Of a stretch of 64,000 bases of DNA, positions 17,380 to 32,831 are shown piece after piece; position 1 is the first letter of the stretch, and each line of letters begins with the position of its first letter. Source of the DNA: Kiritimatiellia bacterium. GTDB taxonomy: Bacteria; Verrucomicrobiota; Kiritimatiellia; CAIQIC01; Lenti-01. The stretch spans positions 5,151 to 69,150 of the forward strand of contig JAFXQI010000086.1 in NCBI GenBank assembly GCA_017527155.1, given 5' to 3'. Below the pieces are notes generated by a model. The model ran no database searches, was not told the origin of the DNA, and saw only the letters and a list, made by a program, of their open reading frames with translations. The translations under genes were made by a program, and so were the position numbers.

Positions 17380-17847
17380 ATGAACAAGATGCTCAAAGTC
17401 GCGGCGCTCTTGTCGGTGGCGTTGGCCGCCGGGTGCGCCCATGTGGACATATCGTCCCCGAAAAGCCTTTCGGGGCTGGATGTGATCGGCTCGCCGACCC
17501 AGGCGGACCGCCAGGTCGTCGTGAGGAATTCCGGCATACACGTGCTCTGGTGGTTCCCGCTCGCCTCCGGTGACATGCGCTGGGACGAGGAAAAGCAGGA
17601 CATCAAGGGCGGACTCGATTTCTTCGCCGACCACTGCAACTCCGATGTCTGCATGGAAGTCCTGGAAGGCATCGCCAAGCGCGAGAACTGCGACCTGGTG
17701 GGCGTGTACTTCACGGACATGACGAAATCCGGCTTCGACGTCACCACCATGTCCGGCCTCTTCGCGTGGGTCGGCGGGTTGTACGAAGTCCAGGCGTGCG
17801 GCATCCTGCGTCCGCGCGGCGCCGCGCCGGCAAAGGAGGCAAAGTGA
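17380..17847 (+). CDS. Hypothetical lipoprotein
   Basis: AAGGAGG RBS; signal peptide with lipobox LAAGC. Confidence 0.75.
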   Translation: MNKMLKVAALLSVALAAGCAHVDISSPKSLSGLDVIGSPTQADRQVVVRNSGIHVLWWFPLASGDMRWDEEKQDIKGGLDFFADHCNSDVCMEVLEGIAKRENCDLVGVYFTDMTKSGFDVTTMSGLFAWVGGLYEVQACGILRPRGAAPAKEAK

Positions 17848-18269
17848 TGAAAACGAAACTGATCGCCATGCTGCTGGCCCCGTTCCTGTTCGCCGGGTGC
17901 GCCTCCATGAGCACCCTTTCCGAGAACAAGGCGGCGTCGGGCGTCCGGGTCGAAGACAACGCAAAGGCCCTGGCCTCCTACTACGTCGTCAACCACTCCT
18001 ACAAGCTCTTCGGCTGCGTGCCCCTTTCCACCGGCGTGACGTGGAAGGGCGGGGATGACTACAACGGGTTCAACACCGAGTACTTCTCCGACCGGTGCAC
18101 GGTCGACGAGAACCTCGCCTCGGTGAAGGCCGCCGCGAAAGCATGCAAATCCGACCGCATCGCCAGCCTGATCACGACGGTGGACACCAGCTGGGCCTGG
18201 AGCCTCTTCCTCGTGAAACACACCGAGATCAAGACCTCCTGCGTCATCTGCGCGCCCGACGCCCCCTGA
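17847..18269 (+). CDS. Hypothetical lipoprotein
   Basis: AAGGAGG RBS; TGATG coupling; lipobox LFAGC. Confidence 0.75.
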   Translation: MKTKLIAMLLAPFLFAGCASMSTLSENKAASGVRVEDNAKALASYYVVNHSYKLFGCVPLSTGVTWKGGDDYNGFNTEYFSDRCTVDENLASVKAAAKACKSDRIASLITTVDTSWAWSLFLVKHTEIKTSCVICAPDAP

Positions 18270-18305
18270 CCTGCCGCAAGCGTCTCTCCCGCCCAAGGGA
18301 AACGG

Positions 18306-18338
18306 AACCCCGGTCGCCTCCCGACCGGGGTTTTCTTT
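18306..18338 (+). terminator. Rho-independent terminator
   Basis: AACCCCGGTCG-cctcc-CGACCGGGGTT followed by TTCTTT. Confidence 0.75.
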
Positions 18339-18420
18339 GACGTGGCAAGGGAACGGGGCACCTTGACGAACCGGCACCGGTTTTTCTTCGGCAGCCCATC
18401 CGTTGACCCAACCACCTGGC

Positions 18421-18872
18421 CGCGCGGAAGCGCGTCCCTCCCATTGCGCTCTCCATGGGGAGGGATGCGCTTCCGCGCGTCCGCAACGGAAATGGCACCG
18501 GAGCGACGACGCACCCGCCGTCTGCAGGCGATGGCCGAGCAGGCGCCCGCCCCTCTTCGTTGCCCCGCCCGCCCAGCGGGCGCAGTGACGAGAGACGAGT
18601 GACGAGAGACGCGTTTGCGGTGCGGCCTCCCGGCCGCCCATGTCGGAGCGCGGGCGGCCCGCCCGCTTGCTTGTTGACGTTCTGCCCGCGCTCGGTGGGG
18701 CAAGCTCTCCGAGCGAGCCGTACCAAGCACCCGTTCGGCTCGCACGGAGTGCTCGCCCCACCCGGGGGCCCGTGGATGAAGTTCTGCGCACCGCAAACTC
18801 GTCACTCGTCTCTGGCGCGCCCGCCAGGGCGCGCCAACCGCATCCCGTCACTTGTCACTTGTCACTTTTCAC
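18421..18872. repeat. Cluster of REP-like palindromes and 7-bp tandem repeats
   Basis: GGAAGCGCGTCCCTCCC...GGGAGGGATGCGCTTCC inverted pair; GTGACGAGAGACGAGTGACGAGAGACG; GTCACTTGTCACTTGTCACTTTTCACT. Confidence 0.65.
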
Positions 18873-19369
18873 TGCGCCCGCTGTCATACGGCGGGCGCCC
18901 CCCGGTTATCCCTTGTATGACACCCCGTGCCCCCCGTCCGCGTCCGGACGCCCGGCGCGGCGAACAAGGAGGACGAAAGACCGAGACAGGACATAGGCTT
19001 TCCGCGATGACGCGGGCGGCAGGAGAGGTGCGCGACGAAACGGTGTGACGCCACGGCACGCGACATTTTCGCGCTTGCCTAGTCCCTCCGTTTCTGCGAA
19101 GGTCGGTTCTGCCAAAGCGCTCCGGGGCGCAAACCCCGCCGCGTCGAGGCGGACAATCGATTTGCATACCCGCAAATCCAATCGTTCCTGAGAAATCTGG
19201 TCCATTTCTTCCCCGAACATTGGTTGCGAGGTGCGTCCATGCGCACCTCTCTGCTGATTTTCGGAAAGGGCCCGACCAGAGCCTCTCAGGAGAACCACAG
19301 AGAGGCTTTTGTTGACCCGGAAAAGTCTCTCCTGGAGTTGTAGCAACCAGGGTCGGAGACAAAACTATT

Positions 19370-19639
19370 ATGGCAACCATCACGGTCAATATCCTCGACG
19401 CCACGGGAAACAAACGGCAGGAAGTCGAACTGCCCGACAATGCCCCTGTCAATCGCGTCATTGCCGTCCTCCTGGACAAGATGAATCTTCCAAAGAACGG
19501 TCCGGATGGGCAACCCTTGGCCTACAAGTTCCACCACAAACGGACCGGCAAGCAATTGCAGGACACGCAAACTCTGGCCTCCATCGGTGCCCAAGACGGC
19601 GACATCATCCGACTCCAGCCCGAAATCACGGCCGGCTGA
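19370..19639 (+). CDS. Ubiquitin-like protein (YukD/EsaB-like beta-grasp) ending in free C-terminal Gly
   Basis: 89 aa; ITVNILD beta-1, TGKQLQDTQTLASIGAQDGDIIRL (cf. ubiquitin GKQLEDGRTLSDY...ESTLHL), ends EITAG; GGAG RBS. Confidence 0.9.
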   Translation: MATITVNILDATGNKRQEVELPDNAPVNRVIAVLLDKMNLPKNGPDGQPLAYKFHHKRTGKQLQDTQTLASIGAQDGDIIRLQPEITAG

Positions 19640-19650
19640 AAGGACCTGTC

Positions 19651-20868
19651 ATGGAGACTGGCAAGATCAAAGTCTCTCTTGAAGAAACAACCCCCACTCT
19701 CCGGGAAGAGGACCGCTTCCAGAGATTCAGCCTGATTGGATGGTGGAATCAGTCCCGCCTCCGCAACGCCAAGGTGCTCGTCATCGGTGCCGGGGCGCTG
19801 GGCAATGAAATCGTGAAAAATCTTTCATTGCTCGGGTTCGGAAATCTTTTCATTGCCGATTTGGACAATATCGAGAATTCCAATTTGTCGCGTTCGGTCC
19901 TGTACAGGGAACGCGACAATGGAACATCGAAAGCCCGGACGGCGGCCCGGTCTGCGAAGGAGCTGTTCCCCGGCATGAAAGCCCAGGCGTTCCACGGCAA
20001 CGTCCTTTACGATCTGGGTCTTGGCGTCTACCGCTGGGCGGATGTCGTCATCGCGGGACTGGACAACCGCGAGGCGCGCCTGTCCATCAACCGGAATTGC
20101 TGGAAACTCGGAAAACCATGGATTGATGGAGCCATTGAGCAAATCAACGGCATCGCGCGGGTATTCGCCCCGGACGGCCCCTGCTATGAATGCACCATGT
20201 CCGAAACGGACTGGCAACTCCTCAACCGCAGGCGGTCCTGCAATCTCCTTACGAAAGACGAGATGCAGGAAGGCAAGGTCCCGACCACGCCGACCATCAG
20301 CTCCATCATCGCCGGCGTGCAGTGCCAGGAAGCCGTCAAGCTGTTGCATGGCATGGAAACGATTGCGGGAAAAGGTTTCGTGTTCAACGGCATCTCCTGC
20401 GATTCCTATCTGGTCGAATACCAACGCAACGACGATTGCTATTCGCACGACACGGCGGACCGCATCGTCCCGCTCCCGGCCAAAGCGGCGGACACCCGGG
20501 TGGCCGATTTGCTCGCCCGCGCCCGGAACGACCTCGGTCCCGACACGGTCCTCGAACTCGGGAGGGACATCCTTACCGCGCTTCGCTGCCCATTCTGCGG
20601 GAAAACGGAAAGCATTTACCAATCCTTGGGGCAAGTCCGCAATTCGGCCGCGACCTGCCCGGAATGCGGCCGCCGCCGCGAGGCCATGACGGCGTTCACC
20701 ATCGACGGCACACAAGATTTCCTCGACCAGACTTTTGCCGGAATTGGCATCCCTCCCTTCGACATCGTGTGGGCCCGCAACGGCGGCATGCTCGTCGGAT
20801 ACGAATTTGCGGCCGATGCCCGGGAGGTTCTCGGCGAAGTGGCGTCGGCCGGGGAAGGGAATGGTTGA
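19651..20868 (+). CDS. E1-like activating enzyme (ThiF/MoeB/UBA family) with C-terminal zinc ribbons
   Basis: VIGAGALG, D..E.SNLSR, GLDNREAR, PCYECT, candidate catalytic Cys in RRSCN, C-terminal CPFC/CPEC. Confidence 0.93.
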   Translation: METGKIKVSLEETTPTLREEDRFQRFSLIGWWNQSRLRNAKVLVIGAGALGNEIVKNLSLLGFGNLFIADLDNIENSNLSRSVLYRERDNGTSKARTAARSAKELFPGMKAQAFHGNVLYDLGLGVYRWADVVIAGLDNREARLSINRNCWKLGKPWIDGAIEQINGIARVFAPDGPCYECTMSETDWQLLNRRRSCNLLTKDEMQEGKVPTTPTISSIIAGVQCQEAVKLLHGMETIAGKGFVFNGISCDSYLVEYQRNDDCYSHDTADRIVPLPAKAADTRVADLLARARNDLGPDTVLELGRDILTALRCPFCGKTESIYQSLGQVRNSAATCPECGRRREAMTAFTIDGTQDFLDQTFAGIGIPPFDIVWARNGGMLVGYEFAADAREVLGEVASAGEGNG

Positions 20869-20870
20869 CC

Positions 20871-21914
20871 ATGGCCGACTTTACCTCCATCCGCAGGGAA
20901 GAGTGCCGGGCGACCCCCCTGCCTCCCGGATGCAGTCTCGGCGCATCGCGGACGGTCATTCTCCAGTCCGTGCTGAACGAAATCAAGGAACACGGCCGCG
21001 CGAGCATGCACGCGGAAGTCTGCGGCGTGCTCGTCGGTTCGCTGTGCTGGGACGGGGCGGCATATCTCCTTGTCGACGGCCGTATCGAAGGGAAGCACGC
21101 CACCCACCAGAGCGGCAGCGTGACGTTCACGGCGGAGACTTGGGATTCCATCCATGAAGAACTCGACGCGAAGCATCCCGGCCGCGTCATCGTCGGCTGG
21201 TACCACACGCATCCCGGCTTCGGCATCTTCCTGTCGAACATGGATGCGTTCATCCACGAGAATTTCTTTTCCTTCCCCTGGCAACCGGCCTATGTCTTCG
21301 ACCCTCAGGCTGAAACGGACGGCTTCTTCTTCCGCGAGGGGAACAATCTTGTCCAGGAAGAAGTCGCGGTTGTCCCCGACGCCGCGCCGCTTGTCAGAGA
21401 ACCGACGCCCTGCACGGGGGATAGAATCGTTGTCCAGGATGAATCAGGCCGATCCTTCCTGCGCATCGGGCTTGTGGGCGCGACGGTTCTGCTTCTCCTG
21501 CTGGGGACGATATCGGCATCCTCGATTCTTCTGCTGCGTCAATCGCGACAAAGGGAACGATTGGCCGAGGAAAAGGCGGAACGCCTCCAACAGACCATCC
21601 GGAATCAGGCGGAGGAGCTTCGGGAGTTCCAGCGGCAAAGGGAAGCGGAACAAGCAAGCCATTGGCTGGGAAGCGGTTTCGCGCACCACCTGTTCCATTG
21701 GTGGAATTCCGAACGCGACGTTCCCGCACGGCAACGTGCCAACGGCCGGAAAATCCTGGAATTCCGCTTCGGCGAGAGCCCGGTTCCCGGCAAAACCGCT
21801 CCGAATCCGTCCATCGTGGACGAACGGTGGGAATGGGATGCCGCGGAACACATTCCTGTCTCGTCCACAAGGCAACAGGACAAGCCTTCCCCGCCCGGGA
21901 GGGACGACCAATGA
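20871..21914 (+). CDS. JAB/MPN+ (JAMM) metallo-isopeptidase with transmembrane anchor and coiled coil
   Basis: EVCGVLVG...VGWYHTHPGFGIFLSNMD (intact HxHx7SxxD, Rpn11-like); hydrophobic IGLVGATVLLLLLGTISASSILLL. Confidence 0.93.
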   Translation: MADFTSIRREECRATPLPPGCSLGASRTVILQSVLNEIKEHGRASMHAEVCGVLVGSLCWDGAAYLLVDGRIEGKHATHQSGSVTFTAETWDSIHEELDAKHPGRVIVGWYHTHPGFGIFLSNMDAFIHENFFSFPWQPAYVFDPQAETDGFFFREGNNLVQEEVAVVPDAAPLVREPTPCTGDRIVVQDESGRSFLRIGLVGATVLLLLLGTISASSILLLRQSRQRERLAEEKAERLQQTIRNQAEELREFQRQREAEQASHWLGSGFAHHLFHWWNSERDVPARQRANGRKILEFRFGESPVPGKTAPNPSIVDERWEWDAAEHIPVSSTRQQDKPSPPGRDDQ

Positions 21915-21950
21915 CGGCAATAATGGCAAACACATGAAAGGCATACCCAC

Positions 21951-22565
21951 ATGAGCGATTCGAAAATCACGGTTTCCCTCGAGGAAATCGATCAAGCGAC
22001 CCCTGTTCCCGGCCCCATGCCGCCGCCTTTTGTCTCCCCGGATGGCCCGGAGGAGGCTCCGAAACCTCCACCCGGCACCCGTGCCCCGTGGATAATCATC
22101 GCGGTTGCAGTTGCCATCGTGGTCTTGGGCGTGGTCTGCTTTTCGTTGTTTTCTGCAGCCAGCACGGCGGATGCATATCTGAAACGATATGTCCAATCCG
22201 TGAATGCCGAGTTGAGCGATCCATCGTCCCGGCTCAGAAAGTCCGTCGACCAGCGGATAGGGGCCGCCCATCTTACCGTGACCGTGAAAGACGCACGGGT
22301 CGTCGGAAGCGAGGTCACCACGTTCGACGGAACCAATGCCGCAGGCAAGGGCGGTGAAAACATCGACAAGATGGCATTGGTGATTCGCTTCGACTGGGAT
22401 GGTCTGACGACCGGCGGATACAGCGACATGCTCTGGGTCATCGACGGGAACCGAAAGCACCTCGTCAAGTCGGAAATCATCGAAACATCGGCATCGATTA
22501 ATCTTGAGGATCCGGACTTCTGGGGGGCCGTCGGAGATATTCTCCTTGCCCTGTGGGGTGCATGA
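21951..22565 (+). CDS. Single-pass membrane hypothetical protein of the ubiquitin operon
   Basis: KITVSLEE motif, Pro-rich linker, TM (WIIIAVAVAIVVLGVVCFSLF), extracytoplasmic domain. Confidence 0.75.
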   Translation: MSDSKITVSLEEIDQATPVPGPMPPPFVSPDGPEEAPKPPPGTRAPWIIIAVAVAIVVLGVVCFSLFSAASTADAYLKRYVQSVNAELSDPSSRLRKSVDQRIGAAHLTVTVKDARVVGSEVTTFDGTNAAGKGGENIDKMALVIRFDWDGLTTGGYSDMLWVIDGNRKHLVKSEIIETSASINLEDPDFWGAVGDILLALWGA

Positions 22566-22591
22566 CAACGAACCAATTACGGAGAAAAACA

Positions 22592-23830
22592 ATGGAATCT
22601 GAAAAAATCAGCGTCTCGTTGGATGAAGTAAACAGTGCCAGGGTCGATGCGGAAATCCGTCGACAGGACATCGCGGCCCGGATGGCCGCGCACCAAGAAG
22701 AGATCGAGGCGAACACCCCATCGGCGAAACGCTTCGGCGGCGGCGTGTTTCGCAAGGCCATCGTATACATGGCCGTGTTTGGATTCTTCGCTTCACTGCT
22801 GGCCTGGGGCATGGGGGAGCTTGTGCAATACCGCTCGGACCGACACCCCTGGAAGCAGTATCAAGAAGCATTCAACGCCTTTCTGGCATTCAAACCCCAG
22901 GGGCGTGTCTGGGAATTTCAGGAATTCGTGACCGCGCTCCGGATGCATGAAAGCGGACAATACCGGGACAATCCGTTTTTCAGTTCCTCCTTCTGGGACA
23001 AACCGGAATGGCAGCGGCGCAAGGCCTTGGATGCGGCCAAATCTGAATACCGCACGTTGGATCGCGTTTGGTTCATGCTGCTCGGCCTGTTCATCGGAAT
23101 CGGCCTGTCGTGTGCCGAACCGGTGGTCGTCAGGAACGGGAAATCCGCCCTCTTCCGGGGATTGCTCGGTGCCGTGCTGGGACTACTGGGCGGGTTTGTG
23201 TGTTCCCTGTTCATCAACCAGGTGTACAACTTCCTGCAGGGGGACACGGAGGGCTTCACGTTGCAACAGGTGTTTGCCCGGGGCGTGGGGTGGAGCATTC
23301 TCGGGATATTCCTGGCCATCGCCCCCGGCATCGCGATGCGGAACATGAAGAAATTCCTTCTCGGGCTTGCGGGCGGGGCCATCGGCGGTCTCGCCGGGGG
23401 ATTTCTCTTCGATCCGATTTGCCAACTGACGGGGAGCGATGTCCCCGCCCGTTTCGTCAACATCGTCGGCCTCGGCGTCGGTGCGGCCGTGGCCACGGCC
23501 TTGCTGGAAGAAGCCGCGAAACAAGGCTGGCTCAAGGTCGCCACCGGGGTCATTACCGGCAAGCAATTCATCCTGTACCGCAATCCGACGGTCATCGGCA
23601 GTTCGCCGAAAACGGAAATCTACCTCTTCAAGGATCCCACGGTGGCCCCCAAGCATGCCGCCATCAACGGACTTGGAGGGGAATACGTCCTCACGGCCCT
23701 CAATGGCGCGACCGTATTGCTAAACGGAGCTCCCGTAAGGCAACAGCGCCTCAAGAACGGGGACCAGATCCGGGTCGGAAACACGGTGTTCCTGTTCGGT
23801 TCGAAAACGGTGAAACATTCCCAGGGATGA
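22592..23830 (+). CDS. Multi-pass membrane protein with C-terminal FHA domain
   Basis: GGAG RBS; several Gly-rich TM helices; VIGS...KDPTVAPKHA...LNG...LKNGDQIRVG. Confidence 0.85.
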   Translation: MESEKISVSLDEVNSARVDAEIRRQDIAARMAAHQEEIEANTPSAKRFGGGVFRKAIVYMAVFGFFASLLAWGMGELVQYRSDRHPWKQYQEAFNAFLAFKPQGRVWEFQEFVTALRMHESGQYRDNPFFSSSFWDKPEWQRRKALDAAKSEYRTLDRVWFMLLGLFIGIGLSCAEPVVVRNGKSALFRGLLGAVLGLLGGFVCSLFINQVYNFLQGDTEGFTLQQVFARGVGWSILGIFLAIAPGIAMRNMKKFLLGLAGGAIGGLAGGFLFDPICQLTGSDVPARFVNIVGLGVGAAVATALLEEAAKQGWLKVATGVITGKQFILYRNPTVIGSSPKTEIYLFKDPTVAPKHAAINGLGGEYVLTALNGATVLLNGAPVRQQRLKNGDQIRVGNTVFLFGSKTVKHSQG

Positions 23831-23834
23831 GACC

Positions 23835-24638
23835 ATGAAACTCCATTGTCCCCAATGCAATTCGATTCTCGAAGTACCTCCGGAGGCGGACGGCATCGTC
23901 GAATGCCCTTCGTGCGGCAGTCCTTTGGACATGCCGGCGATCCGGACGGCGAACTGCCCGGTGTGTTGCTCGCCCCTGGCGGAAGAGGATACCGTAAAGA
24001 TTTGCCCCAATTGCAAGACTCCCCACCACATGGAATGCTGGGAAGAAAACCGCGGATGTTCGACGTACGGTTGCGCATCGGCTTGGCACGAAGAAACCCA
24101 CACGGGGGAATCATCGGAGGGGGCAGGCATGGTGGCCTGTCCGGCTTGCGGAGCGATGCATCCCGCCACGGACCTGGTCTGCAGTTCCTGCGGCAAGTTG
24201 CTCGGCGAGAATCTGCCGGGCGACTCGACAGGGGCGCGCCTCCAGGAAACCATCGGGAAACTCGGCAGCGCCGCCCAAATGCATCTCCTGCCGAGGCTGG
24301 CACGGAATTTCAGGCTTTTGGGCAAGGACATCGCTTCGGCATTTCGCCTCTGGTGGGGGGAGTTTTCGAGATATGGGGTATTCCGTGGCAAGACCACTCG
24401 GCCTTCGCTCACGGCGTTCATGGGAATCAATTGCGCGTTCAGTATTCTGTTCTCGTGTTGCAACGCCACGCCCCTTGTCTGGATTGAATGGATTGTCCTG
24501 GCCTGTCCAGTGCTCGCCTCCTTTGCACGACGCCTGCGGGACACGGAAATATCGGCATGGATGATTTTCGCCGTCCCTCTCCTCCCCTTTCTACTGTTGG
24601 TTCCAAGCGTCGATTCAACGGAAGGTGTCCAGCCATGA
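23835..24638 (+). CDS. Prokaryotic RING-finger (E3-like) protein: zinc ribbon + RING + zinc ribbon + DUF805-like membrane domain
   Basis: CPVC...CPNCKTPHHMECWEENRGCSTYGC (Prok-RING_1-type pattern); flanking CxxC ribbons; FRGKTTR...RRLRD (DUF805-like). Confidence 0.85.
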   Translation: MKLHCPQCNSILEVPPEADGIVECPSCGSPLDMPAIRTANCPVCCSPLAEEDTVKICPNCKTPHHMECWEENRGCSTYGCASAWHEETHTGESSEGAGMVACPACGAMHPATDLVCSSCGKLLGENLPGDSTGARLQETIGKLGSAAQMHLLPRLARNFRLLGKDIASAFRLWWGEFSRYGVFRGKTTRPSLTAFMGINCAFSILFSCCNATPLVWIEWIVLACPVLASFARRLRDTEISAWMIFAVPLLPFLLLVPSVDSTEGVQP

Positions 24639-25678
24639 TTGAGTTCAACTGCCCGAATTGCAACGAAAAATTCGAAGTCGACGACGAGCTCGCCGGCGCA
24701 ATCGTCGAATGTTCCGCATGCGACTTCCAATTCACCGTTCCCGGGAGGGGCGAATCCGATTCTCCTTCTTGTCCCGAAAGCACGCCTGAACAACCTCCCG
24801 ACGACGCGGCGGCCGGGCTGATGGAACATGGAACCCTCGTGTTTTCCTGCCCGAATTGCCATGACCGTCTTGAATGCAGCGCCGAACTGGTGGGAGTCCG
24901 TGTCGCTTGCGCCCGTTGCGATTACCATTTCATCGTGCCGCCACCGAATGCGAACGACAGTGCGCCCGATGCCTTGCCCGACGAGATACCTCCTCCAGAG
25001 GCCCCTGCGGATTCTTCCCCGGACATGGAGACCTCCCCCCCGCCCCCCCTCCCTGCCGCGGAAGAAAGAGCCGCACCTTCGGGAAAACTGGATTTGTCCG
25101 CGGAGTTCCCGGAGTGCGCCGATCCGCCGACCAATTCCGGGGAGGCGAGGTCTGCTCCGATCGATAGGACCGCACAGGCTCCCGCCGTCCCGATGCCAAC
25201 GGGGAGGCTTTCGCCCCGCCAACGGCGGCTGGTGTCGGATTTCCGGATGATGAGGGAACGGTTCACCGCCTTCCCCTTGATTCATCTGGAACATGTCCAG
25301 GGCAACCCACCGGAAATGTACGTCGTCTCCTACCGCATACGCGGCATCGAGCGCCTTCGCGGCGACCAAGTCGTATACCGTGATTACCACGAAGTCGAAA
25401 TCAAGCTCCCCGGAACCTATCCCCGGACGCCGCCGACGTGCCGGATGCTCACCCCGGTCTTCCACCCGAACATCGAGCCGGCCATCATCTGCATCGGCGA
25501 CCACTGGACCGCTTCCGAACGGCTCTGCGACCTGGTGGTCAGGATTGGAGAGATGATTGCCTACCAATCGCACAACATCAAGAGTCCTCTCGACGGCGAA
25601 GCCGCCATGTGGACGGACCTCCACGGCGACATGCTCCCCATCGACAGCCGGGATTTGACCCCGCCGGAAGACGGGTGA
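24635..25678 (+). CDS. E2 ubiquitin-conjugating (UBC) enzyme with two N-terminal zinc ribbons
   Basis: RRLVSDF, YPRTPP, FHPNI, catalytic Cys in IICIGDHW; ATGA coupling to the RING gene. Confidence 0.92.
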   Translation: MIEFNCPNCNEKFEVDDELAGAIVECSACDFQFTVPGRGESDSPSCPESTPEQPPDDAAAGLMEHGTLVFSCPNCHDRLECSAELVGVRVACARCDYHFIVPPPNANDSAPDALPDEIPPPEAPADSSPDMETSPPPPLPAAEERAAPSGKLDLSAEFPECADPPTNSGEARSAPIDRTAQAPAVPMPTGRLSPRQRRLVSDFRMMRERFTAFPLIHLEHVQGNPPEMYVVSYRIRGIERLRGDQVVYRDYHEVEIKLPGTYPRTPPTCRMLTPVFHPNIEPAIICIGDHWTASERLCDLVVRIGEMIAYQSHNIKSPLDGEAAMWTDLHGDMLPIDSRDLTPPEDG

Positions 25679-25723
25679 CGCCATCGGCTTTCCCGGAAAC
25701 AAACCACGCGCAAGGAGAACGAC

Positions 25724-28021
25724 GTGAACGACCAAGAAAAACCCATCCGCATCACTCCGATCGGAAAACCCGCCGCCCCTGCCGTGGATAGCAGAAAATT
25801 GAGGGTGATTGCACGGCCGGCATCAACTCCGGAAAACCGATTGCAAGGCCAACCGGAACCGGTCGGCGGACAAAGCGGGGAGAGCGCGTCGACCGGCCAC
25901 CCCGGGATGGAACCCATCGGGATGACGCCGCATGGCGTCGGGCCGGAGAAGGGGAAATCCGGCATTCGGACATGGGTGTGGATTCTGCTGGTGGTGCTGC
26001 TTGTTGCCGCCGGGGGCGTGGGATGGTGGTTCATGGCCGGGAAAGACGGCGGAGACGATGGGGCGGAGGATACCGCCGGAAGCCCCCCGGCCCCCTCGCC
26101 CATGTATCCAACCGATCCCCCGCAATCTCAGGAAGGAGGCAGGCAACGGAATGCGGTTGCCGTGAATCCCGTCCTGCAAGAGCGCTCGTTGGTCACCTAC
26201 TCCTTGGAGTTCGGGGGCCGCGTACCTCCTGAATGCTGTTCATTCACCGTGACGAACAGCGGCATCAAAAGCACTTTGCCGATTGATACGCTTGGGGGCA
26301 ATCCAGTGTACTTCCTGAGCGATATGGATGTCTTGTGGAAATACCGCGTTTCCGGTTCCGGAAACGAATATATCTTTTCAACCATGGTGGGCAAGTATTC
26401 CAAAGCCGACACCCCCATCTATTTCTCCCTGCTCAGGGATGCGGTGGCACGCAAGACGCGGGGCACGACCCTTGCAAAAAAAACGGATGTCCTCTGCGAA
26501 AATGCCTGGCTCGGAAGCCGCCGTTATCCTGCACCCGCCGTCATGGCATACACCAATCATTCCACGCGGTTCCTTTATCTCAACGACACCGGAAACCCCT
26601 CCGTCCTGGAATGGGGGGAAACCATGAAATACTGGTTCTGGTGCCATGAAGGAGCGGAAGCGTTGGCCGAGTACGCGGGGAGTCTGCGGAAATTGAAACA
26701 GACATTGATCGACTACTCCAACATCGCCCGCGAGGAAGGATTGCGGCAATACAACAGGGCCATCACCATCGATGATCCCCCCGTGTTCCACATCGGGCAG
26801 CTGGACGAGGGCACGCGGGAGCCAGTCGAGGTCGAATACGAGTTCGTGGTCGAAAACGGAATCTCCATGGCAAAAGAGATCTCGAAATGCGGAAGCGGAA
26901 CCTATTCGAGGCGTTGGACATTGGAAGCATTGGAGGATGAATTGGATTTCTTCTCCCGCTTTGAAACGGCTGAATCCACGGAAAAGGCTTTCGAACCGTT
27001 GTATTGCTATCTGACGCAAATGAAAATCCTCTTCGAGGAGGCTGCCCTGGAGGTGGACCGGGTGGAGAACCGGTTCGAGGGAGGCGGGCAGGGAAACAAC
27101 CCCGGCAAGAAAGATCAACAGTTGACCTTCGCCCCTGTCGGCCCACAAACCACGACATCGCGCGTCAACCTCTCGGCGACGGCGGACAGTGGCGGGAAAG
27201 TGGTGTTTTCGGTGGATTCCGGCCCGGGAAAGATTGATGGCGACACGCTCACATTCACGGGGACCGGGGAAGTCGTGGTCCGTGCCCGGCAGTGGGGCGA
27301 CGAGACATGGCATTCCGCGACGGCTACACAGACCATCGAGGTGAATAGGGATCCCGTCCCCGCGGTCAGTCCCGAAAGGAAAACACAGTCCGACGGTTCC
27401 GGGACAACAAATGCCGCACAGTCCGGGGCCCGACTCCCTGGGGAGAGAACGACTGGGACCCACCGCCCGGCGACCTCCACGCCTCCGCCGGAACTGGCGG
27501 GCATGAAGGCCGCCCTTGAAGCATTGCAAGGTTCGCAGACACCACCCAATCTCGCGAAAGTGGAAAACGAATGGAAGGCTCTCTCCGGAAAATGGAAGTC
27601 CGCCTTGCAGAAGAACGTGATGTGGGCCAGCTGCGCGATATTCCTGCAACATGGCAACACGACGGCGCTGGCAAAGCGCAAGGCATTCTTGGACGCCCAG
27701 GCGCTGGCCAGTGCCGTGTCGGACAAATGCCGCGCCTGCAACGGGACGGGCCACAACAAGGATCGATGCCGCGAATGTTCGGGAACCGGGCGTTGTTCCT
27801 TCTGCCATGGGAGCGGACGTACCCCGGGTCTGAACGGCCGCACGGGGCCTTGTCCGAAATGCAACAGCTCGGGACGCTGTCTCGCTTGCTCGGGTGGCAT
27901 CAAGGAGTCCTCATGCCGGATGTGTTCGGGGTCGGGACGGACATTGTCGGCAACCAAATGCCAGAAAGTCGTGGATGACAACATCGCCCAGGCAATCCGC
28001 ATCTGCCGAGGAGAAGAATAA
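25724..28021 (+). CDS. Membrane-anchored protein with Ig-like module and C-terminal DnaJ-type CxxCxGxG zinc-finger repeats
   Basis: AAGGAG RBS, GTG start; TM WVWILLVVLLVAAGGVGWWFM; beta-rich module QLTFAPVG...TQTIEV; six CxxCxGxG-like repeats. Confidence 0.8.
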   Translation: MNDQEKPIRITPIGKPAAPAVDSRKLRVIARPASTPENRLQGQPEPVGGQSGESASTGHPGMEPIGMTPHGVGPEKGKSGIRTWVWILLVVLLVAAGGVGWWFMAGKDGGDDGAEDTAGSPPAPSPMYPTDPPQSQEGGRQRNAVAVNPVLQERSLVTYSLEFGGRVPPECCSFTVTNSGIKSTLPIDTLGGNPVYFLSDMDVLWKYRVSGSGNEYIFSTMVGKYSKADTPIYFSLLRDAVARKTRGTTLAKKTDVLCENAWLGSRRYPAPAVMAYTNHSTRFLYLNDTGNPSVLEWGETMKYWFWCHEGAEALAEYAGSLRKLKQTLIDYSNIAREEGLRQYNRAITIDDPPVFHIGQLDEGTREPVEVEYEFVVENGISMAKEISKCGSGTYSRRWTLEALEDELDFFSRFETAESTEKAFEPLYCYLTQMKILFEEAALEVDRVENRFEGGGQGNNPGKKDQQLTFAPVGPQTTTSRVNLSATADSGGKVVFSVDSGPGKIDGDTLTFTGTGEVVVRARQWGDETWHSATATQTIEVNRDPVPAVSPERKTQSDGSGTTNAAQSGARLPGERTTGTHRPATSTPPPELAGMKAALEALQGSQTPPNLAKVENEWKALSGKWKSALQKNVMWASCAIFLQHGNTTALAKRKAFLDAQALASAVSDKCRACNGTGHNKDRCRECSGTGRCSFCHGSGRTPGLNGRTGPCPKCNSSGRCLACSGGIKESSCRMCSGSGRTLSATKCQKVVDDNIAQAIRICRGEE

Positions 28022-28187
28022 TCGTCGGCACGGAGGAAGGCAGGGGAGATATCCCCCGAAAGTTGGTGGTGCACACGGCCTTGGGGGGGGCTTCCCCGTA
28101 ACCTTCCCGCTCGGTCCCGAGAAGCAGGAGAAAGGGGGCGCACTTGATGTCAACAAGCCAAAAAACACGGAAACAAGGCGGAACACC

Positions 28188-29687
28188 ATGAAGGTACTTC
28201 ACAGCATCATTATTTGTCTGGCGCTGCTTGCAATGGGCGGGGCTTGCTCAGGAAGAGGGGACGCGGACGGGGGACGGAAACCCGAAGGCGGGGCGGCACC
28301 GGCGGCGGAGGTGCGTCTTCCGCCGGCATGGGTGGTCACCGACATGGATACCGCGGCGCAGGCGGAGGCGGGCGACGTGGATGCCATGGGGTTCGTTGCC
28401 CGGGGATACATGGAGTTGGCGACTTCAGAAAACATCGAGGCAAGCGACGAAGAGCGGCAGGCGATGTTCCGGGAAGCTATGGACTGGGTGACCCGGCGGA
28501 CCAAGATCATTGCCGACCGCGAGGGTGACGTCGAAAGCGTACGCAAGCGGGCGGAGGCGGGGGATGCCGCCGCGCAGCGGAACCTAGGGTACCGGTACAG
28601 TCTGGGCGTCGATGTCGAAAAGGACGAGTCTTTGGCGTTCGAGTGGACGAAAAAGGCCGCCGAACAGGGCGATGCCAAGGCAATGTTCAACTTGGCAAAC
28701 GATTACGCCAAGGGACAGGGCGTCGTGGCGGATGCCGCCGAGGCGCTCGGATGGTACCGCAAGGCAGCCGCGGGCTGGCGGGAGCTGGTTGCGAACGGTG
28801 GCGTTCAGGCCGGGGACTGCCAGGCGCTGGTGATTACCGGCATGGATTTGCTCGGTGAGGAGGGCGTCTCGGGGGTGCGGGCCCCCGAGCTCGGGTTGGA
28901 GTTCCTCGAAATCGCGGCCTTGGCGGGCGATGCGCCGACCCAGGCCGAGTTGGGTCTCCGGTACATGCTGGGGGGCGGAGTTCCGCAGGACATGGCGAAG
29001 GCCGCAGAATGGTGGCGGAAGGCCGCGGACGGAGGCGAGTGCCGCGCCATGCTCTGGCTCGGCACCGCGTACGAGCGCGGCGACGGGGTGGAGAAAGACG
29101 ATTGCAAGGCCAAGGAGTATTGGGAACGGAGCCATGCCGCCGGGTGGCCCGCGGCCACCGAGAAACTCCTTTCGCTCGCGGACGAGTACCGCGAAGCGGC
29201 GGAAGCGGGCGATGCGTCATCGCAGTTCTTCATGGGGGCTGCTCATGAATGCGGGTACGGGACGGAACGGGACGCGGGAGAGGCCGTCGCGTGGTACCGG
29301 AAAGCGGCGGAGCAGGGGCATCCGGGAGCGCAGGCGTTCTTGGGATATGCGCTCCTGGCGGGCGAGGGCACGGAAAAGAACGCGGAGGAAGCGGTCGCGT
29401 GGTTCCGCAAGGCCGCCGAACAGGGGAATCCCGAGGCACAGCAGAACCTCGGCCTGTGCCTGTTCTACGGCGAGGGATGCGAAGAAAACCAGGTGGAAGC
29501 GGCGGAGTGGTACCGCAAGGCGGCCGAGCAAGGGGAGGCGGGCGCCATGTTCAATCTCGGGGCCTGCTACAAGGATGGCACAGGCGTCCCCGAAGACCCC
29601 GCCGAGGCGCTTGCTTGGTTCCGTCGTGCGGCGGCGTTGGGGCATCCCCGCGCGGCCGCGGTCCTGAAGCAAATGGCGTGGGAATAG
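28188..29687 (+). CDS. Sel1-repeat (SLR) lipoprotein
   Basis: Signal with LAMGGAC; many AQxNLG..Y..G.GV..D...A..WY.KAAEQG repeats. Confidence 0.92.
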   Translation: MKVLHSIIICLALLAMGGACSGRGDADGGRKPEGGAAPAAEVRLPPAWVVTDMDTAAQAEAGDVDAMGFVARGYMELATSENIEASDEERQAMFREAMDWVTRRTKIIADREGDVESVRKRAEAGDAAAQRNLGYRYSLGVDVEKDESLAFEWTKKAAEQGDAKAMFNLANDYAKGQGVVADAAEALGWYRKAAAGWRELVANGGVQAGDCQALVITGMDLLGEEGVSGVRAPELGLEFLEIAALAGDAPTQAELGLRYMLGGGVPQDMAKAAEWWRKAADGGECRAMLWLGTAYERGDGVEKDDCKAKEYWERSHAAGWPAATEKLLSLADEYREAAEAGDASSQFFMGAAHECGYGTERDAGEAVAWYRKAAEQGHPGAQAFLGYALLAGEGTEKNAEEAVAWFRKAAEQGNPEAQQNLGLCLFYGEGCEENQVEAAEWYRKAAEQGEAGAMFNLGACYKDGTGVPEDPAEALAWFRRAAALGHPRAAAVLKQMAWE

Positions 29688-30130
29688 ATTCGGGAGAGTT
29701 GTTTCCAATCATGGAAAAACTAGATGGGGCGGAGGGGCACGCTGCGGGATGCACAATTGCAGTGCGCCAGCTGTGGTGAGCGGGACGTAGGAGGGATAGC
29801 GGCTCGCCGGGGACGGCTCGCCCCACCAGCGGGCTGGCGGGGGCTGGCCCTTTTTCTGCCGGGAATTGCCGGAATGATCTGACGGGTTTGTTTGCCATTA
29901 TGCCCTTTGTCCCTTTTGTTTCCCAATTGTTTCCCGGGAACGTGAATCGGGCGGGGTTGTCCGCCCGATGCCCTTGTGGAAGTTGTCCCGGGTTGTCCAC
30001 GTTGTCTCCAAAAAGATGGTGCCGCCCTGCGGGCTGGAAGAGGAAGGGGAGACGGGCGGGCCGCCCGCGCTCCGGCAGGGGGCGAAACGAGGGTTGCTAG
30101 GTTCTTCAAATATGTTACGATACATAGCCG

Positions 30131-30883
30131 ATGAGTTTATCTCCCGAAACAGATTTACAGAAAGCGATGCGCCTCGTCCACCAAAAGGGGGTGGTCACGG
30201 CGGCCTATCTGCGGGCTCAAGGGGTAAGCTACCAGAACATGCTCAAGTATCGGCGGGGGAAATGGCTGGCCTCCCTCGGGACGGGGGCGTTCTGCGGAAA
30301 CGGCACGGCGCCGACGCTCGATGCCGCGCTTGCCGCTCTCCGCGAACAGCTGGGAATCCCGGTCCATCTCGGCGGGAGGACGGCGCTGCTCCGCCGGGGA
30401 ATCATGCAACAGGTCCCGCTTGGCGGACGCGCGGCCGAAGTGTGCTTGCGCCGCGGCATCCGGCTTCCGAAGTGGTTTTGCGGCACATTCGCGGGCCAGT
30501 TCGTCCGCAACGCGTCGAACCTCCTTCCGGATGAGACGGGCGTGGAGCGCGGGGACGACGGGGTGGCCTTCTCCTCGCCCGAGCGCGCCTTTCTCGAAGT
30601 GGCGGCGGAGGTGCCCCAAAAAGCCTCGGTCGGCGAACTGTACCAGCTGATGGAATTCGCCGAAACGCTGCGACCGGGATTGGTCTCGGAACTGTTGTCC
30701 ACGTGCAGGTCGGTCAAGGCGAAGCGGGTTTTCCTTTTTCTCGCGGACGACCTCGGGCACTGGTGGGCGAAAAAGATCGACCGGTCGGCCATCCACCTCG
30801 GCACCGGATGCCGCGTGATCGACAAGGGCGGGGTGTTCCAGACGAAATACAACCTCGTCGTGGCCCCTTGGAGGGAAACCTGA
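30131..30883 (+). CDS. Type IV TA antitoxin, AbiEi family
   Basis: HLGGRTAL, SSPERAFLE, LRPGLVSELLSTCRSVKAKRVFLFLA, LGTGCR. Confidence 0.88.
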   Translation: MSLSPETDLQKAMRLVHQKGVVTAAYLRAQGVSYQNMLKYRRGKWLASLGTGAFCGNGTAPTLDAALAALREQLGIPVHLGGRTALLRRGIMQQVPLGGRAAEVCLRRGIRLPKWFCGTFAGQFVRNASNLLPDETGVERGDDGVAFSSPERAFLEVAAEVPQKASVGELYQLMEFAETLRPGLVSELLSTCRSVKAKRVFLFLADDLGHWWAKKIDRSAIHLGTGCRVIDKGGVFQTKYNLVVAPWRET

Positions 30884-31800
30884 TGGACAAGTCGTACCTG
30901 CGCCAGGCGGAACTGGTCGTGCGGTGCATCCCCGCGATTGCGGCGGAGGAGTGCTTCGCCCTCAAGGGGGGCACGGCCATCAACCTCTTCGAGCTCGATT
31001 TGCCACGGCTCTCCGTGGACATCGACTTGGCATTCCTGCCCGCGACGGAACGAGTGACGGCCATCGCGGAAATCGACGCGGCGCTTTCCCGGATTGCGGG
31101 ACGGTTGCAGGCGCGAGGTGTTGCCGCCCGGTTGCGCGGAACGGACGAAGCCCGGAAGATCGCCTGCTCCGCGAACGGGGCGGAGATCAAGATCGAGCCG
31201 AACTACATCCTCCGGGGCACGGTCCGCCCCGCTCGCCGGATTGAACTGTCGCCGAAAATGGCCGGGCTGGTGGGGTTGTCGGCGGAAATGACCGTCCTCT
31301 CCCGGGAAGAACTGTACGGGGGGAAGTTCTGCGCGGCCCTGGACCGGCAACATCCGCGGGACTTGTTCGACGTGGCGCAGTTTTTCAAGCGCGGGGGAAG
31401 CGTGCGGGACGTGAAAGACGGTTTTCTCGCACTGGCCATGGGACACAACCGCCCCCTGCACGAACTGCTCGCACCGCATCCGCTCAACCAGTCCGCAACG
31501 TTTGCCGTCCAGTTCGCGGGGATGAGCGACGTGCCGTTTTCCCTTGCCGAACACGAGACGGTGTTCAAGCGGCTGGTCGTGGAGATCGACGAAGCGCTCA
31601 CGCAGGAGGACCGCAGGCGTCTCGTGGCATTCACCGCGCTGGAAGCGGATGCGGACATCTTCGGGATTCCGGGGCTGGAGAAACTGCCCGCCATCCAGTG
31701 GAAGCGCCGGAATCTGGAAACACTGCGGAACCGGAACCCCCGCAAGTTCGCCGAAAACGTGAAGGCGCTGGAAGTCGTGTTGCGAACTGCGAGCACGTGA
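30883..31800 (+). CDS. Type IV TA toxin, AbiEii nucleotidyltransferase
   Basis: FALKGGTAINLF, RLSVDIDL, LYGGKFCAALDRQHPRDLFD; TGATG coupling. Confidence 0.93.
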   Translation: MDKSYLRQAELVVRCIPAIAAEECFALKGGTAINLFELDLPRLSVDIDLAFLPATERVTAIAEIDAALSRIAGRLQARGVAARLRGTDEARKIACSANGAEIKIEPNYILRGTVRPARRIELSPKMAGLVGLSAEMTVLSREELYGGKFCAALDRQHPRDLFDVAQFFKRGGSVRDVKDGFLALAMGHNRPLHELLAPHPLNQSATFAVQFAGMSDVPFSLAEHETVFKRLVVEIDEALTQEDRRRLVAFTALEADADIFGIPGLEKLPAIQWKRRNLETLRNRNPRKFAENVKALEVVLRTAST

Positions 31801-32831
31801 CGCATGAGGGAGACCAGCAGCTCAGGGGCGGGTGGAAAAGGGGTGAAATGTTTTTCCAATCGTTGGAAATAACGGGAAAAGTTTTCCAACCATTGGAAAA
31901 GTTTTTTCCAATCATTGGAAACTTGCGGCGGGACGGATTGGGCCCGGATCAGGGGGCTTTTGGGGCGGATGCCGTCGAGGGCGAAGTCGGGGAGGGCGTC
32001 GAAGACAGGAGAGAGGGAAGGTGCGAGGGGGGCGCGGCAGACGAAGTGGTAGGTGGCGGTGGCTTCGGGGTCGCGGAAAGGGATTTTCACGCGGTTGCCG
32101 GGATAGGGGCCCAGGCGGGCGGCCTGGTCGGAGTAGAAGCCGGGGAGGTCGGAGTTGGCGACGATGCGGCGGGCGGCTTCGGTGGTGCCCTGGGCGAGGA
32201 ACTCGGCGCGGGGGATCTTCCGGCGGCAGAGGGGAATCCAGAAGCCGCTGTCGCCGAAGAGGACGAAGGTCTCGCCCGCCAGGTCCGCGAAACGCAGGGT
32301 CTTGCGCCGCGCCAGGGGATGCACCGGCGGGAGGAGGACGCCGAGGTGCTCGCGCAGGAAGGCTTTCGATTGCCAGCCGCCGCCCGCCGGGGGACGGAGG
32401 AGGACGGCGGCGTCGAGGGTTCCTTCTTCGAGGGCCGCGACGAGGGGGGCGTCGGCGTCGGCAAGGCGCGATTCGACGGTCTTGCCCGGCAGGGCGCGCG
32501 CCAGCAGCGGGGCGAGGACCCACACGGGCATGGGCGCGACGGAGCCGTAGCGGAAGACACGGGCGGCGCGGTCGGCTTCGCGCACGGCCGCGGAAAGTCC
32601 GTCGAGCGCGGAGAGGACGAGGCGGGCGTGCTCGGCGGCGAGGCGCCCGAGGGGGGCGAGGACGGTGCGCCCGGCGGTGCGGTCGAAGAGGGCCGCCCCG
32701 AGTTCGCCTTCGAGTTTCTGCATGGCGCGGCTGAGGGCGGGCTGCGAGACGTGCAGCGCCTTCGCCGCCGCCGTGAAGGACCCGCACCGGCCGATTTCCG
32801 CGATGCCGCGGAGGAGGTAGGTTTCGATCAT
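31203..32831 (-). CDS. LysR family transcriptional regulator (ORF abnormally extended at C-terminus)
   Basis: GSFTAAAKALHVSQPALSRAMQKLEGELGAALFDR; substrate-binding domain ends near 31960 but no stop occurs until 31203. Confidence 0.85.
   Translation of the reverse strand: MIETYLLRGIAEIGRCGSFTAAAKALHVSQPALSRAMQKLEGELGAALFDRTAGRTVLAPLGRLAAEHARLVLSALDGLSAAVREADRAARVFRYGSVAPMPVWVLAPLLARALPGKTVESRLADADAPLVAALEEGTLDAAVLLRPPAGGGWQSKAFLREHLGVLLPPVHPLARRKTLRFADLAGETFVLFGDSGFWIPLCRRKIPRAEFLAQGTTEAARRIVANSDLPGFYSDQAARLGPYPGNRVKIPFRDPEATATYHFVCRAPLAPSLSPVFDALPDFALDGIRPKSPLIRAQSVPPQVSNDWKKLFQWLENFSRYFQRLEKHFTPFPPAPELLVSLMRHVLAVRNTTSSAFTFSANLRGFRFRSVSRFRRFHWMAGSFSSPGIPKMSASASSAVNATRRLRSSCVSASSISTTSRLNTVSCSARENGTSLIPANWTANVADWLSGCGASSSCRGRLCPMASARKPSFTSRTLPPRLKNCATSNKSRGCCRSRAAQNFPPYSSSRERTVISADNPTSPAIFGDSSIRRAGRTVPRRM
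31851..31922. repeat. Three TTTCCAA-N3-TTGGAAA palindromes
   Basis: TTTCCAATCGTTGGAAA, TTTTCCAACCATTGGAAAA, TTTCCAATCATTGGAAA; related copies at 43303-43345 and 29701-29718. Confidence 0.8.

Follow-up and report, generated by a model that had tools for sequence, protein, structure and literature searches.

The 64,000-nucleotide stretch of contig JAFXQI010000086.1 analysed here (the window; assembly GCA_017527155.1, a Kiritimatiellia bacterium) carries, at positions 19370-25678, seven co-directional open reading frames (ORFs) on the + strand, all of them intact, that encode in this order a ubiquitin-like protein (Ubl), an E1-type activating enzyme, a JAMM/MPN+ peptidase (JAB), a membrane protein termed g4, a membrane protein with an FHA domain termed g5, a RING E3 candidate and an E2 (Table 1). 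The intergenic spacings are, in gene order, 11, 2, 36, 26, 4 and -4 bases, the RING and E2 genes overlapping in the sequence ATGA, and six domain families were found above their curated Pfam cut-offs, namely YukD, ThiF, JAB, FHA, Prok-RING_1 and UQ_con. A hydropathy scan placed transmembrane-like segments in JAB, g4, g5 and the RING protein, and none in the Ubl, the E1 or the E2. We consider, with a probability of about 0.75, that the window holds an intact, horizontally acquired, membrane-associated system for Ubl conjugation and deconjugation, which belongs to an operon family found mainly in the PVC (Planctomycetes, Verrucomicrobia and Chlamydiae) group. An earlier, sequence-only reading of this DNA had described seven tightly packed co-directional genes, an arrangement borne out by the ORF map with its spacings of -4 to 36 bases, and the profile searches that it had proposed, with ThiF, UQ_con, Prok-RING_1, JAB and YukD, all gave scores above the respective cut-offs. 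The five functions it had named also stand at the level of curated profiles, catalytic residues and conservation in related loci; its account of the gene content was incomplete in that g4 and g5, two of the seven genes (both encoding membrane proteins, one with an FHA domain), had been omitted, and it had missed the membrane anchoring of JAB and RING as well as an N-terminal motif shared by three of the proteins.

The Ubl and the enzymes encoded beside it

The comparisons below draw on 71 related loci, with one genome per species scanned; the search was seeded on peptides of the window's E2, and distant forms, e.g. actinobacterial ones, would escape it. The Ubl matches the Pfam family YukD (PF08817) with 48.5 bits against a cut-off of 27, and the ubiquitin profile reaches 17.4 bits, under its cut-off of 25.4. 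Against single ubiquitin and NEDD8 chains in the PDB a profile of the Ubl gave marginal matches only (E 0.03-0.8, in the GKQL..D..TL segment), and its low E-values on polyubiquitin chains are sums over repeats. The protein ends in ...LQPEITAG directly followed by the stop codon, which is the free C-terminal glycine (EITAG) that had been read from the sequence. An alignment of 29 Ubl sequences drawn from several phyla has a mean column identity of 79%, with K15, K53 and P84-E-I-T-A-G89 invariant, and EITAG is kept in 35 of 37 related Ubl frames, of which 12 stop right at AG and 23 are extended by 2-144 residues. Genes that stop at AG and genes that run on both keep EITAG, which marks AG as the functional end of the Ubl, an exposed C-terminal glycine kept by selection as expected of a conjugatable Ubl. 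The two related frames lacking EITAG (loci L062 and L076) look frameshifted or decayed. In three Planctomycetota loci (L046 2830-3528, L047 2686-3384 and L051 2037-2720) the Ubl is extended by ~140 residues past EITAG, the extension consisting of a CxxC...CxxC ribbon and hydrophobic helices; judged by these features, the product would be a membrane-tethered precursor needing cleavage.

The E1 matches ThiF (PF00899) with 166.7 bits (cut-off 28.1), and its best sequence matches in the PDB are UBA7, SAE2, UBA3 and UBA1, with ThiF and MoeB ranking below them. The glycine-rich nucleotide motif, NLxR and candidate cysteine named in the sequence-only reading are all confirmed by conservation: invariant in 29 of 29 aligned E1 homologues are GAGALGNE, NLSRS, C178-x2-C181, C263/H266, the ribbon cysteines C313, C316, C336 and C339, and Cys197 in the RRSC loop. 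In an AlphaFold2 (AF2) model with a predicted local distance difference test score (pLDDT) of 81.6, the C-terminal region (residues 270-400) reaches pLDDT 84-98 and residues 1-20 lie at 53-57, with the Cys197 loop of low confidence, as expected for a mobile catalytic loop. The top fold matches of this model are UBA3 chains (~434 aligned columns, TMq 0.49). The protein thus has the glycine motif, crossover-loop cysteine and C-terminal domain of the conjugating branch of E1 enzymes, and we infer that the C-terminal domain is an E2-presenting ubiquitin-fold domain (UFD).

The E2 matches UQ_con (PF00179) with 38.7 bits (cut-off 27) and recovers 116 E2 sequences from the PDB at E<=0.01, the closest being the eukaryotic UBE2C, UBE2K, Ubc13 and Ubc9. 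H277-P278-N279 and C286 align with the HPN motif and the cysteine of chain 2e2c_A, and both HPN and Cys286 are invariant in 71/71 related loci, in agreement with the earlier call of a UBC-type E2 with these residues. At E<=0.001, 1605 database sequences are related to the UBC part, and some of these are annotated as E2 of Oligosphaeraceae or Planctomycetaceae metagenome-assembled genomes. The RING protein matches Prok-RING_1 (PF14446) with 49.5 bits (cut-off 29.1), and the eight zinc ligands of the RING-type finger already recognized from the sequence (C41, C44, C57, C60, H65, C68, C75 and C80) are conserved in related loci by tblastn. They form the pattern C-x2-C-x12-C-x2-C-x4-H-x2-C-x6-C-x4-C, i.e. 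C4HC3, which is the pattern given for prokaryotic RINGs in a 2024 review (PMC11354881). DUF805 on the same protein, at 22.3 bits, stays under its cut-off.

The JAB protein matches Pfam JAB (PF01398) with 38.3 bits (cut-off 22.5), and its metal site, E49...H112-x-H114-x7-S122-x2-D125, is a full JAMM site that aligns with that of Rpn11. Rpn11 is also its best PDB match (E 8e-10), with the Caldiarchaeum Rpn11-like chain 6fjv at E 2.7e-8, so that the description of this protein as an Rpn11-like JAMM peptidase holds. The sequence-only reading had further cast it as a deconjugase. For the window this is reasonable, because the Ubl here stops right after EITAG and leaves the peptidase only deconjugation to perform; for the family it is too narrow, since the extra 2-144 residues on 23 of the 35 related EITAG-bearing Ubls suggest that in many relatives JAB would also need to mature Ubl precursors. 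As judged from these families and their conserved residues, the operon very probably encodes a conjugation cascade.

The FHA membrane protein and the shared N-terminal motif

The g5 protein matches FHA (PF00498) with 36.4 bits (cut-off 20.7) and Yop-YscD_cpl with 38.8 bits. Its AF2 model (pLDDT 84, predicted TM-score 0.73, residues 1-8 with pLDDT <50) has a disordered N-terminus ahead of a long helix, then a helical membrane domain rich in glycine and finally the FHA sandwich, and only the FHA part finds matches in the PDB, namely OdhI and GarA (Foldseek, TMt 0.83-0.92, root-mean-square deviation 0.9-1.2 Å). When g5 is aligned to GarA, however, G-R is replaced by G-S and S-R-R-H by A-P-K-H, i.e. 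the residues of a phosphothreonine reader are absent; within the g5 family G336 is invariant, S337 nearly so, and the canonical serine position varies. Because the phosphate-binding Arg and Ser are missing across the family, canonical phosphothreonine reading by g5 is unlikely, and on the same ground we rejected a phospho-dependent FHA reading of the N-terminal motif described below.

Relatives of g5 were found in 45 of the 71 loci, and the family comprises 902 representatives at E<=1e-30. Amongst ten long representatives scanned there were two JAB-g5 fusions, one Prok-RING_1-g5 fusion that also carries a zinc ribbon, five proteins with a VWA domain and two with FHA only. The fusions to JAB and RING speak for direct contact between g5 and the enzymes at the membrane, and g5 is probably physically coupled to the conjugation enzymes; it is a core part of the system, acting most likely as membrane platform, main client or both. 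A structural neighbour cluster in the Atlas that combines UQ_con with FHA (TM-score 0.67 by query) serves as a lead only. By analogy with YukD and YukB, the FHA domain of g5 might also hold the Ubl. In the VWA-bearing representatives (P0215, P0220-P0222 and P0224) the VWA domain is inserted ahead of the last membrane helices and the FHA domain, and P0215 retains the N-terminal motif, MANEKIRIEWDDIKSPQVD.

This motif is common to the N-termini of the E1 (METGKIKVSLEE), g4 (MSDSKITVSLEE) and g5 (MESEKISVSLDE), where K-I-x-V-S-L-[DE]-E begins four residues after each start codon. Translated in all six frames, the complete 3.2 Mb genome contains KI.VSL[DE]E at three sites, against 0.0013 expected, and these are the starts of the three proteins. 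The codons of the three copies differ at synonymous sites, and therefore it is the peptide that is conserved; a nucleotide-level signal was rejected. Across phyla a related motif, consisting of hydrophobic-x-hydrophobic, Ser/Thr/Asp and then acids, is found on E1 and g5, with the lineage forms KITISWDEL in Phycisphaerae and PIRL[TD]xxDL in Planctomycetia; on g5 the Phycisphaerae form reads ISWDEL or ISYDDV. The motif heads g5 in 33 of 42 closed frames, and the nine without it are mostly fragments or frames split between matches, four of them (L033, L056, L075 and L082) carrying the motif in another frame. It also starts extra small ORFs within related operons (L019 594-1223, 3099-3542 and 3589-4140; L016 2626-3168), one of those in L019 having two tandem copies and two of the four having a transmembrane segment soon after, and it is internal in one JAB-g5 fusion. 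Given the internal and tandem copies, a need for a free N-terminus was rejected; likewise, the motif lysine was rejected as an acceptor, its position being Pro in Planctomycetia. The motif is of low confidence in both the E1 and the g5 monomer models, which argues that it is not packed within its own protein.

In order to assess the Ubl as the receptor of the motif, the complex of the Ubl with g5 residues 1-45 was predicted with both partners supplied as alignments. The median interaction prediction score from aligned errors (ipSAE) was 0.44 over three runs, compared with 0.01 for the best of three controls; the runs share at least 80% of contacts, the partner pLDDT is at least 63, and the tool's verdict is 'weak support'. 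The pass mark applied admits 58 of 80 solved complexes along with 2 of 110 mismatched pairs, passes at scores of 0.60 or below being made up of 7 of the 80 solved complexes plus both passing mismatches. We tentatively read the motif as a docking motif that may bind the Ubl by strand addition in the manner of SUMO-interacting motifs (SIM), LC3-interacting regions (LIR) or the UFM1-interacting sequence (UIS) of UBA5, which the prediction fits, and g4 and g5 would then be the foremost candidates for conjugation. The sequence-only reading had called the targets unknown; this no longer applies as it stands, the shared motif and the g5 fusions supplying a candidate list of g4, g5 and the E1.

Alternatively, the motif may dock elsewhere, on the zinc ribbons of the E2 or RING, the backside of the UBC domain, JAB or the FHA domain of g5, or it may be a recognition tag (degron) read by the E2/E3 pair, in which version the E1 would carry the tag for recruitment to the membrane complex. 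We regard this as doubtful on balance, with some points clearly in its favour. The E1 is the only motif-bearing protein without a transmembrane segment, and a membrane-recruitment role of the motif therefore fits; the E2 and the RING protein each carry two zinc ribbons; the central position of the motif is Ser, Thr or Asp in g5 homologues; the 'weak support' rating of the Ubl complex leaves room for another receptor; and the proteins closest to the g5 FHA domain (OdhI/GarA and DgcB) include, by their titles, entries in which an FHA domain binds its own N-terminal peptide. On the other hand, the FHA domain of g5 is without the Arg and Ser that hold phosphothreonine, and the motif position is often Ser; the Ubl:motif prediction stands 0.43 above its controls; and on the E1 the motif directly precedes the N-terminal DRFxRFxLIxWWDQ helix. 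In ThiF/MoeB-type enzymes the N-terminal helix is next to the adenylation site, at which the Ubl docks.

Distribution and genomic setting

The 71 related loci comprise 65 from Planctomycetota, two from Victivallales, one from Kiritimatiellae, two from Armatimonadota and one from a rumen bacterium. By tblastn the recurrent gene order is Ubl, E1, JAB, a variable stretch, g5, RING and E2, and 35 of the 71 loci have the full set of six conserved genes, many of the incomplete ones being truncated where the contig or the 10 kb flank ends; the two Armatimonadota loci yielded no g5, and in them the E2 lies ahead of the RING gene. The Ubl was detected in 4 of 401 genomes of the window's own phylum, its own genome included, and amongst 40 relatives of that genome a single weak match touches the UBC domain. 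Matches to the E2 in 34 of 41 genomes are nearly all to its N-terminal zinc ribbons (query residues 1-137) and not to the UBC domain; zinc ribbons of this MJ0042 type are widespread on unrelated proteins of the window's own genome and its relatives (e.g. in its own genome, G000, at C7:15404-15574 and C29:42179-42289).

Table 1. Features of the operon and its surroundings in the window.
Feature	Position	Strand	Description
Ubl	19370-19639	+	89 aa, YukD-like beta-grasp, mature EITAG-stop end
E1 activating enzyme	19651-20868	+	405 aa; N-terminal motif, adenylation domain, crossover-loop Cys197
E1, further parts	19651-20868	+	zinc ribbon C313, C316, C336, C339; C-terminal beta-rich domain
Motif copy 1, KIKVSLEE	19663-19686	+	E1 residues 5-12
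JAMM/MPN+ peptidase (JAB)	20871-21914	+	347 aa; one transmembrane-like segment ~193-224; charged tail
g4	21951-22565	+	204 aa; N-terminal motif, Pro-rich linker, transmembrane segment ~40-75, ~130 aa past membrane
Motif copy 2, KITVSLEE	21963-21986	+	g4 residues 5-12
g5	22592-23830	+	412 aa; N-terminal motif, helix, glycine-rich multi-helix membrane domain, C-terminal FHA
Motif copy 3, KISVSLDE	22604-22627	+	g5 residues 5-12
RING E3 candidate	23835-24638	+	267 aa; zinc ribbon, C4HC3 Prok-RING_1 finger C41...C80, second zinc ribbon
RING tail	within 23835-24638	+	DUF805-like transmembrane tail; transmembrane-like segments at 191-262
E2	24635-25678	+	347 aa; two MJ0042-type zinc ribbons, Pro/acid-rich linker, UBC domain
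g8	25724-28021	+	765 aa; one transmembrane-like segment 78-107; C-terminal CxxCxGxG repeats, DnaJ type
Low-GC island	19000-32200	.	operon, g8, Sel1-repeat gene, AbiEi/AbiEii pair

The operon lies in an island (about 19 to 32 kb) with a GC content of ~0.56-0.65, compared with 0.68-0.73 in the flanks, and the same stretch contains genes for an AbiEi antitoxin (AbiEi_3, 116 bits; 30131-30883, +) and an AbiEii nucleotidyltransferase toxin (111.9 bits; 30703-31800, +). Rarity in the phylum together with the low-GC island and its AbiEi/AbiEii pair argues that the operon here is, as far as sequence composition and distribution can tell, a horizontally acquired accessory block.

These same features bear on the idea that the operon serves in anti-phage defence or some other conflict, in the manner of Bil, Bub and the type II form of CBASS (cyclic oligonucleotide-based anti-phage signalling system), in one version of which the glycine-rich g5 would be a membrane-damaging effector restrained or released by Ubl conjugation. 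Such a role is compatible with the cascade chemistry, and it would fit the sporadic distribution (the Ubl in few genomes of the phylum, one weak UBC match amongst the 40 relatives), the low-GC island with the AbiEi/AbiEii pair downstream (30131-31800), the accessory genes that differ between loci, and the fact that all three studied bacterial Ubl systems are reported or suspected to act in defence (PMC11601596, PMC12687455). We nevertheless consider it unlikely. PADLOC gave only weak matches, the best to the adenylation core of the E1 (E1-E2 45.4 bits, BilD 32.9 bits), with JAB at a weak 23.4 bits and the E2 at 15.1 bits (E 0.0035) and no match for the Ubl, g4, g5 or RING, which does not place the operon in Bil, Bub or type II CBASS. 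The synteny is stable over many Planctomycetota chromosomes, where it rather resembles that of a resident cellular system; none of the usual effector domains, such as a nuclease or NADase, turned up; and a single adjoining toxin-antitoxin pair is thin evidence.

The remaining genes and signals around the operon can be described briefly. Downstream of the E2, g8 has no Pfam, NCBIfam or PADLOC family, and its Atlas model is of low confidence with no usable match; it is a possible accessory gene whose membership in the operon is uncertain. Its N-terminus, EKPIRITPIG, is faintly like the Planctomycetia form of the motif minus the acids. A Sel1-repeat protein (245.7 bits, eight repeats, hydrophobic N-terminus) is encoded 3' of g8 at 28194-29687 (+), followed by a terminator-like hairpin at 29831-29850; promoter and terminator scans gave no more matches than in shuffled sequence. 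None of g4, g8 and the Sel1 gene has relatives in the 71 loci by tblastn, and g4 lacks a Pfam, NCBIfam or PADLOC family as well. The ~1.1 kb 5' of the Ubl gene (18270-19369) contains no convincing ORF and no Rfam match, and the GC content reaches 0.70 in 18.4-19.0 kb and falls sharply thereafter. Further upstream, two small ORFs without assigned family (17380-17847 and 17766-18269, +) have signal-like N-termini with an A-G-C lipobox-like stretch, and may encode lipoproteins. Neither a tRNA gene nor an Rfam family was detected in the window.

Proposed mechanism and relation to known systems

The steps proposed for the cascade are taken from the chemistry of the families involved. The E1 would adenylate Gly89 of the Ubl and then form a thioester on its crossover-loop Cys197; its C-terminal domain would present the E2, and the Ubl would move to Cys286 beside the HPN motif. 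The membrane-anchored C4HC3 RING would promote discharge of the Ubl onto lysines, and the membrane-anchored JAMM peptidase would strip it off again and, in relatives with an extended Ubl, mature the precursor. The disordered strand-plus-acid motif would recruit the Ubl to the E1, and the machinery to the membrane proteins that the operon itself encodes. The biological output may be regulation of a membrane function or defence. It is highly improbable that the Ubl is instead a ThiS/MoaD-like sulfur carrier, or a structural, non-conjugated YukD-type adaptor, with the E1 only adenylating: the E1 does have the ThiF/MoeB adenylation fold and classical YukD is described as working without conjugation (PMC12637312), but the NCBIfam equivalogs score far under their cut-offs (ThiF 123.6 vs 275.25, MoeB 113.7 vs 449), no rhodanese, ThiG or MoaE-type match was found by Pfam and NCBIfam amongst the operon genes scanned, the HPN/Cys E2, RING and JAMM peptidase are strictly co-conserved with the Ubl, and the AG end is invariant, with extensions in relatives that would require trimming.

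A further-reaching reading, which we hold to be rather unlikely, is that the motif is a bacterial counterpart of SIM/LIR-type motifs and the operon a membrane ubiquitination switch complete in itself, with the genes for its clients next to those for its enzymes. The E1 would then capture the Ubl via the motif, and g5 in all cases and, in some lineages, g4-like proteins would draw the charged Ubl or the ligase onto themselves. If this were true, motif-directed modification at the membrane by an embedded RING ligase would have existed in bacteria before eukaryotes.

Several findings weigh against the conjugation and deconjugation system proposed above, or against parts of it. The UQ_con match is confined to residues 251-325 of the E2, where tblastn conservation extends over ~150 residues, and sequence comparison with the PDB finds no relative of the RING protein outside its zinc ribbons. 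The absence of g4 relatives from the other loci means that a role for g4 cannot be generalised. The motif is kept less strictly on the E1, where 21 of the 30 N-termini that could be read have two acids within eight residues, as the rule applied requires, and the others are Ala-rich variants; moreover, E1 and g5 motifs taken from one locus exceed pairs taken from different loci only a little in similarity (BLOSUM 7.4 vs 5.6; in a weak permutation test, with rows that are kin, 434 of 10000 permutations reach the observed value). The Ubl:motif score falls in a band that is oftener wrong than right unless the guess was likely beforehand. Finally, no RNA run amongst the public runs carries the operon, the carriers being DNA contigs of animal gut metagenomes.

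What the family offers is the full eukaryote-like set, i.e. an E1 with presenting domain, an HPN E2, a RING, an Rpn11-like JAMM peptidase and a conserved Ubl, and since the proteins in the window are small and the Ubl there is already mature, they make a clean starting point for reconstitution. With the motif and the g5 fusions, the candidate targets narrow to a short list of g4, g5 and the E1 itself, and the system bears on the origin of RING-dependent ubiquitination and of Ubl-interaction motifs. The operon type is already known, and what the window carries is a further example of it, from a bacterium of the gut. Burroughs, Iyer and Aravind (Mol Biosyst 2011) reportedly predicted prokaryotic Ubl-E1-E2-JAB-RING operons computationally, in work said to be the source of Prok-RING_1 (PF14446). 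Those operons are said to have an HPN E2, an E1 with C-terminal domain and a C4HC3 RING, with conjugation proposed for their YukD-like Ubl, and the window operon probably shows no difference in kind from them. Beyond the sequence-only reading, the present analysis brings in the membrane setting, the place of g5 as a core partner and a motif pointing to candidate clients. A 2006 paper of the same group gives other E1/E2/JAB operons, amongst which, in the parts available, the type found in the window is absent. Our literature search found no experimental study of a RING-type bacterial Ubl operon; complete operons in bacteria are mentioned in passing (PMC5654768).

The closest reconstituted system is archaeal: the Ub-E1-E2-RING-Rpn11 operon of Caldiarchaeum subterraneum and Asgard archaea has been reconstituted in vitro (PMC5654768, PMC6043591). 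It resembles the window operon in being compact and comprising all five activities, and the JAB protein described here matches the Caldiarchaeum chain 6fjv. Unlike the C4HC3 finger of the window, the archaeal RING is given as a C3H2C3 RING-H2 (PMC11354881), and the window further differs in its YukD-like Ubl ending in AG, its membrane-anchored JAB and RING, the additional transmembrane FHA protein and the shared N-terminal motif. The bacterial Ubl systems studied to date are listed as type II CBASS, Bil and Bub (PMC11601596), which agrees with the statement of studied systems in the sequence-only reading (CBASS and Bil) and adds Bub to it. Bil (types I and II), Bub and type II CBASS Cap2/Cap3 share with the window operon an E1-type adenylation step, a relay through an E2-type cysteine, a JAB or other peptidase and a location in accessory islands, whilst no RING E3 is mentioned for them in the account available (PMC11601596). 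Their E2s are given as differing from the eukaryotic HPN type, the motif of the Bil E2 being CEHH (PMC11354881), in contrast to HPN in the window.

Two further comparisons concern the motif and the Ubl fold. Grooves on SUMO, ATG8, UFM1 and ATG12 bind linear beta-strand motifs, one of which lies in the E1 UBA5 (PMC12687455). Like SIM, LIR or Atg8-interacting motifs (AIM) and UBA5-UIS, the window motif is a short hydrophobic-x-hydrophobic strand followed by acids in disordered tails, and as in UBA5 it occurs on the E1 itself, here in addition to candidate client proteins; it differs from them in that its binding to the Ubl stands as one weak prediction, with another component as a possible receptor. 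The LIR core is W/F/Y-x-x-L/I/V, which the ISWDEL and ISYDDV forms of g5 in Phycisphaerae resemble. In the core membrane complex of type VIIb secretion, YukD contacts the FHA domains of YukB (PMC12637312), and the window is alike in placing a YukD-family beta-grasp protein beside a non-phosphopeptide FHA domain on a membrane protein. YukD in the YukB complex is, however, described as a permanent non-covalent subunit with no conjugation enzymes, whereas the Ubl of the window ends in an invariant AG and is accompanied by a full set of enzymes.

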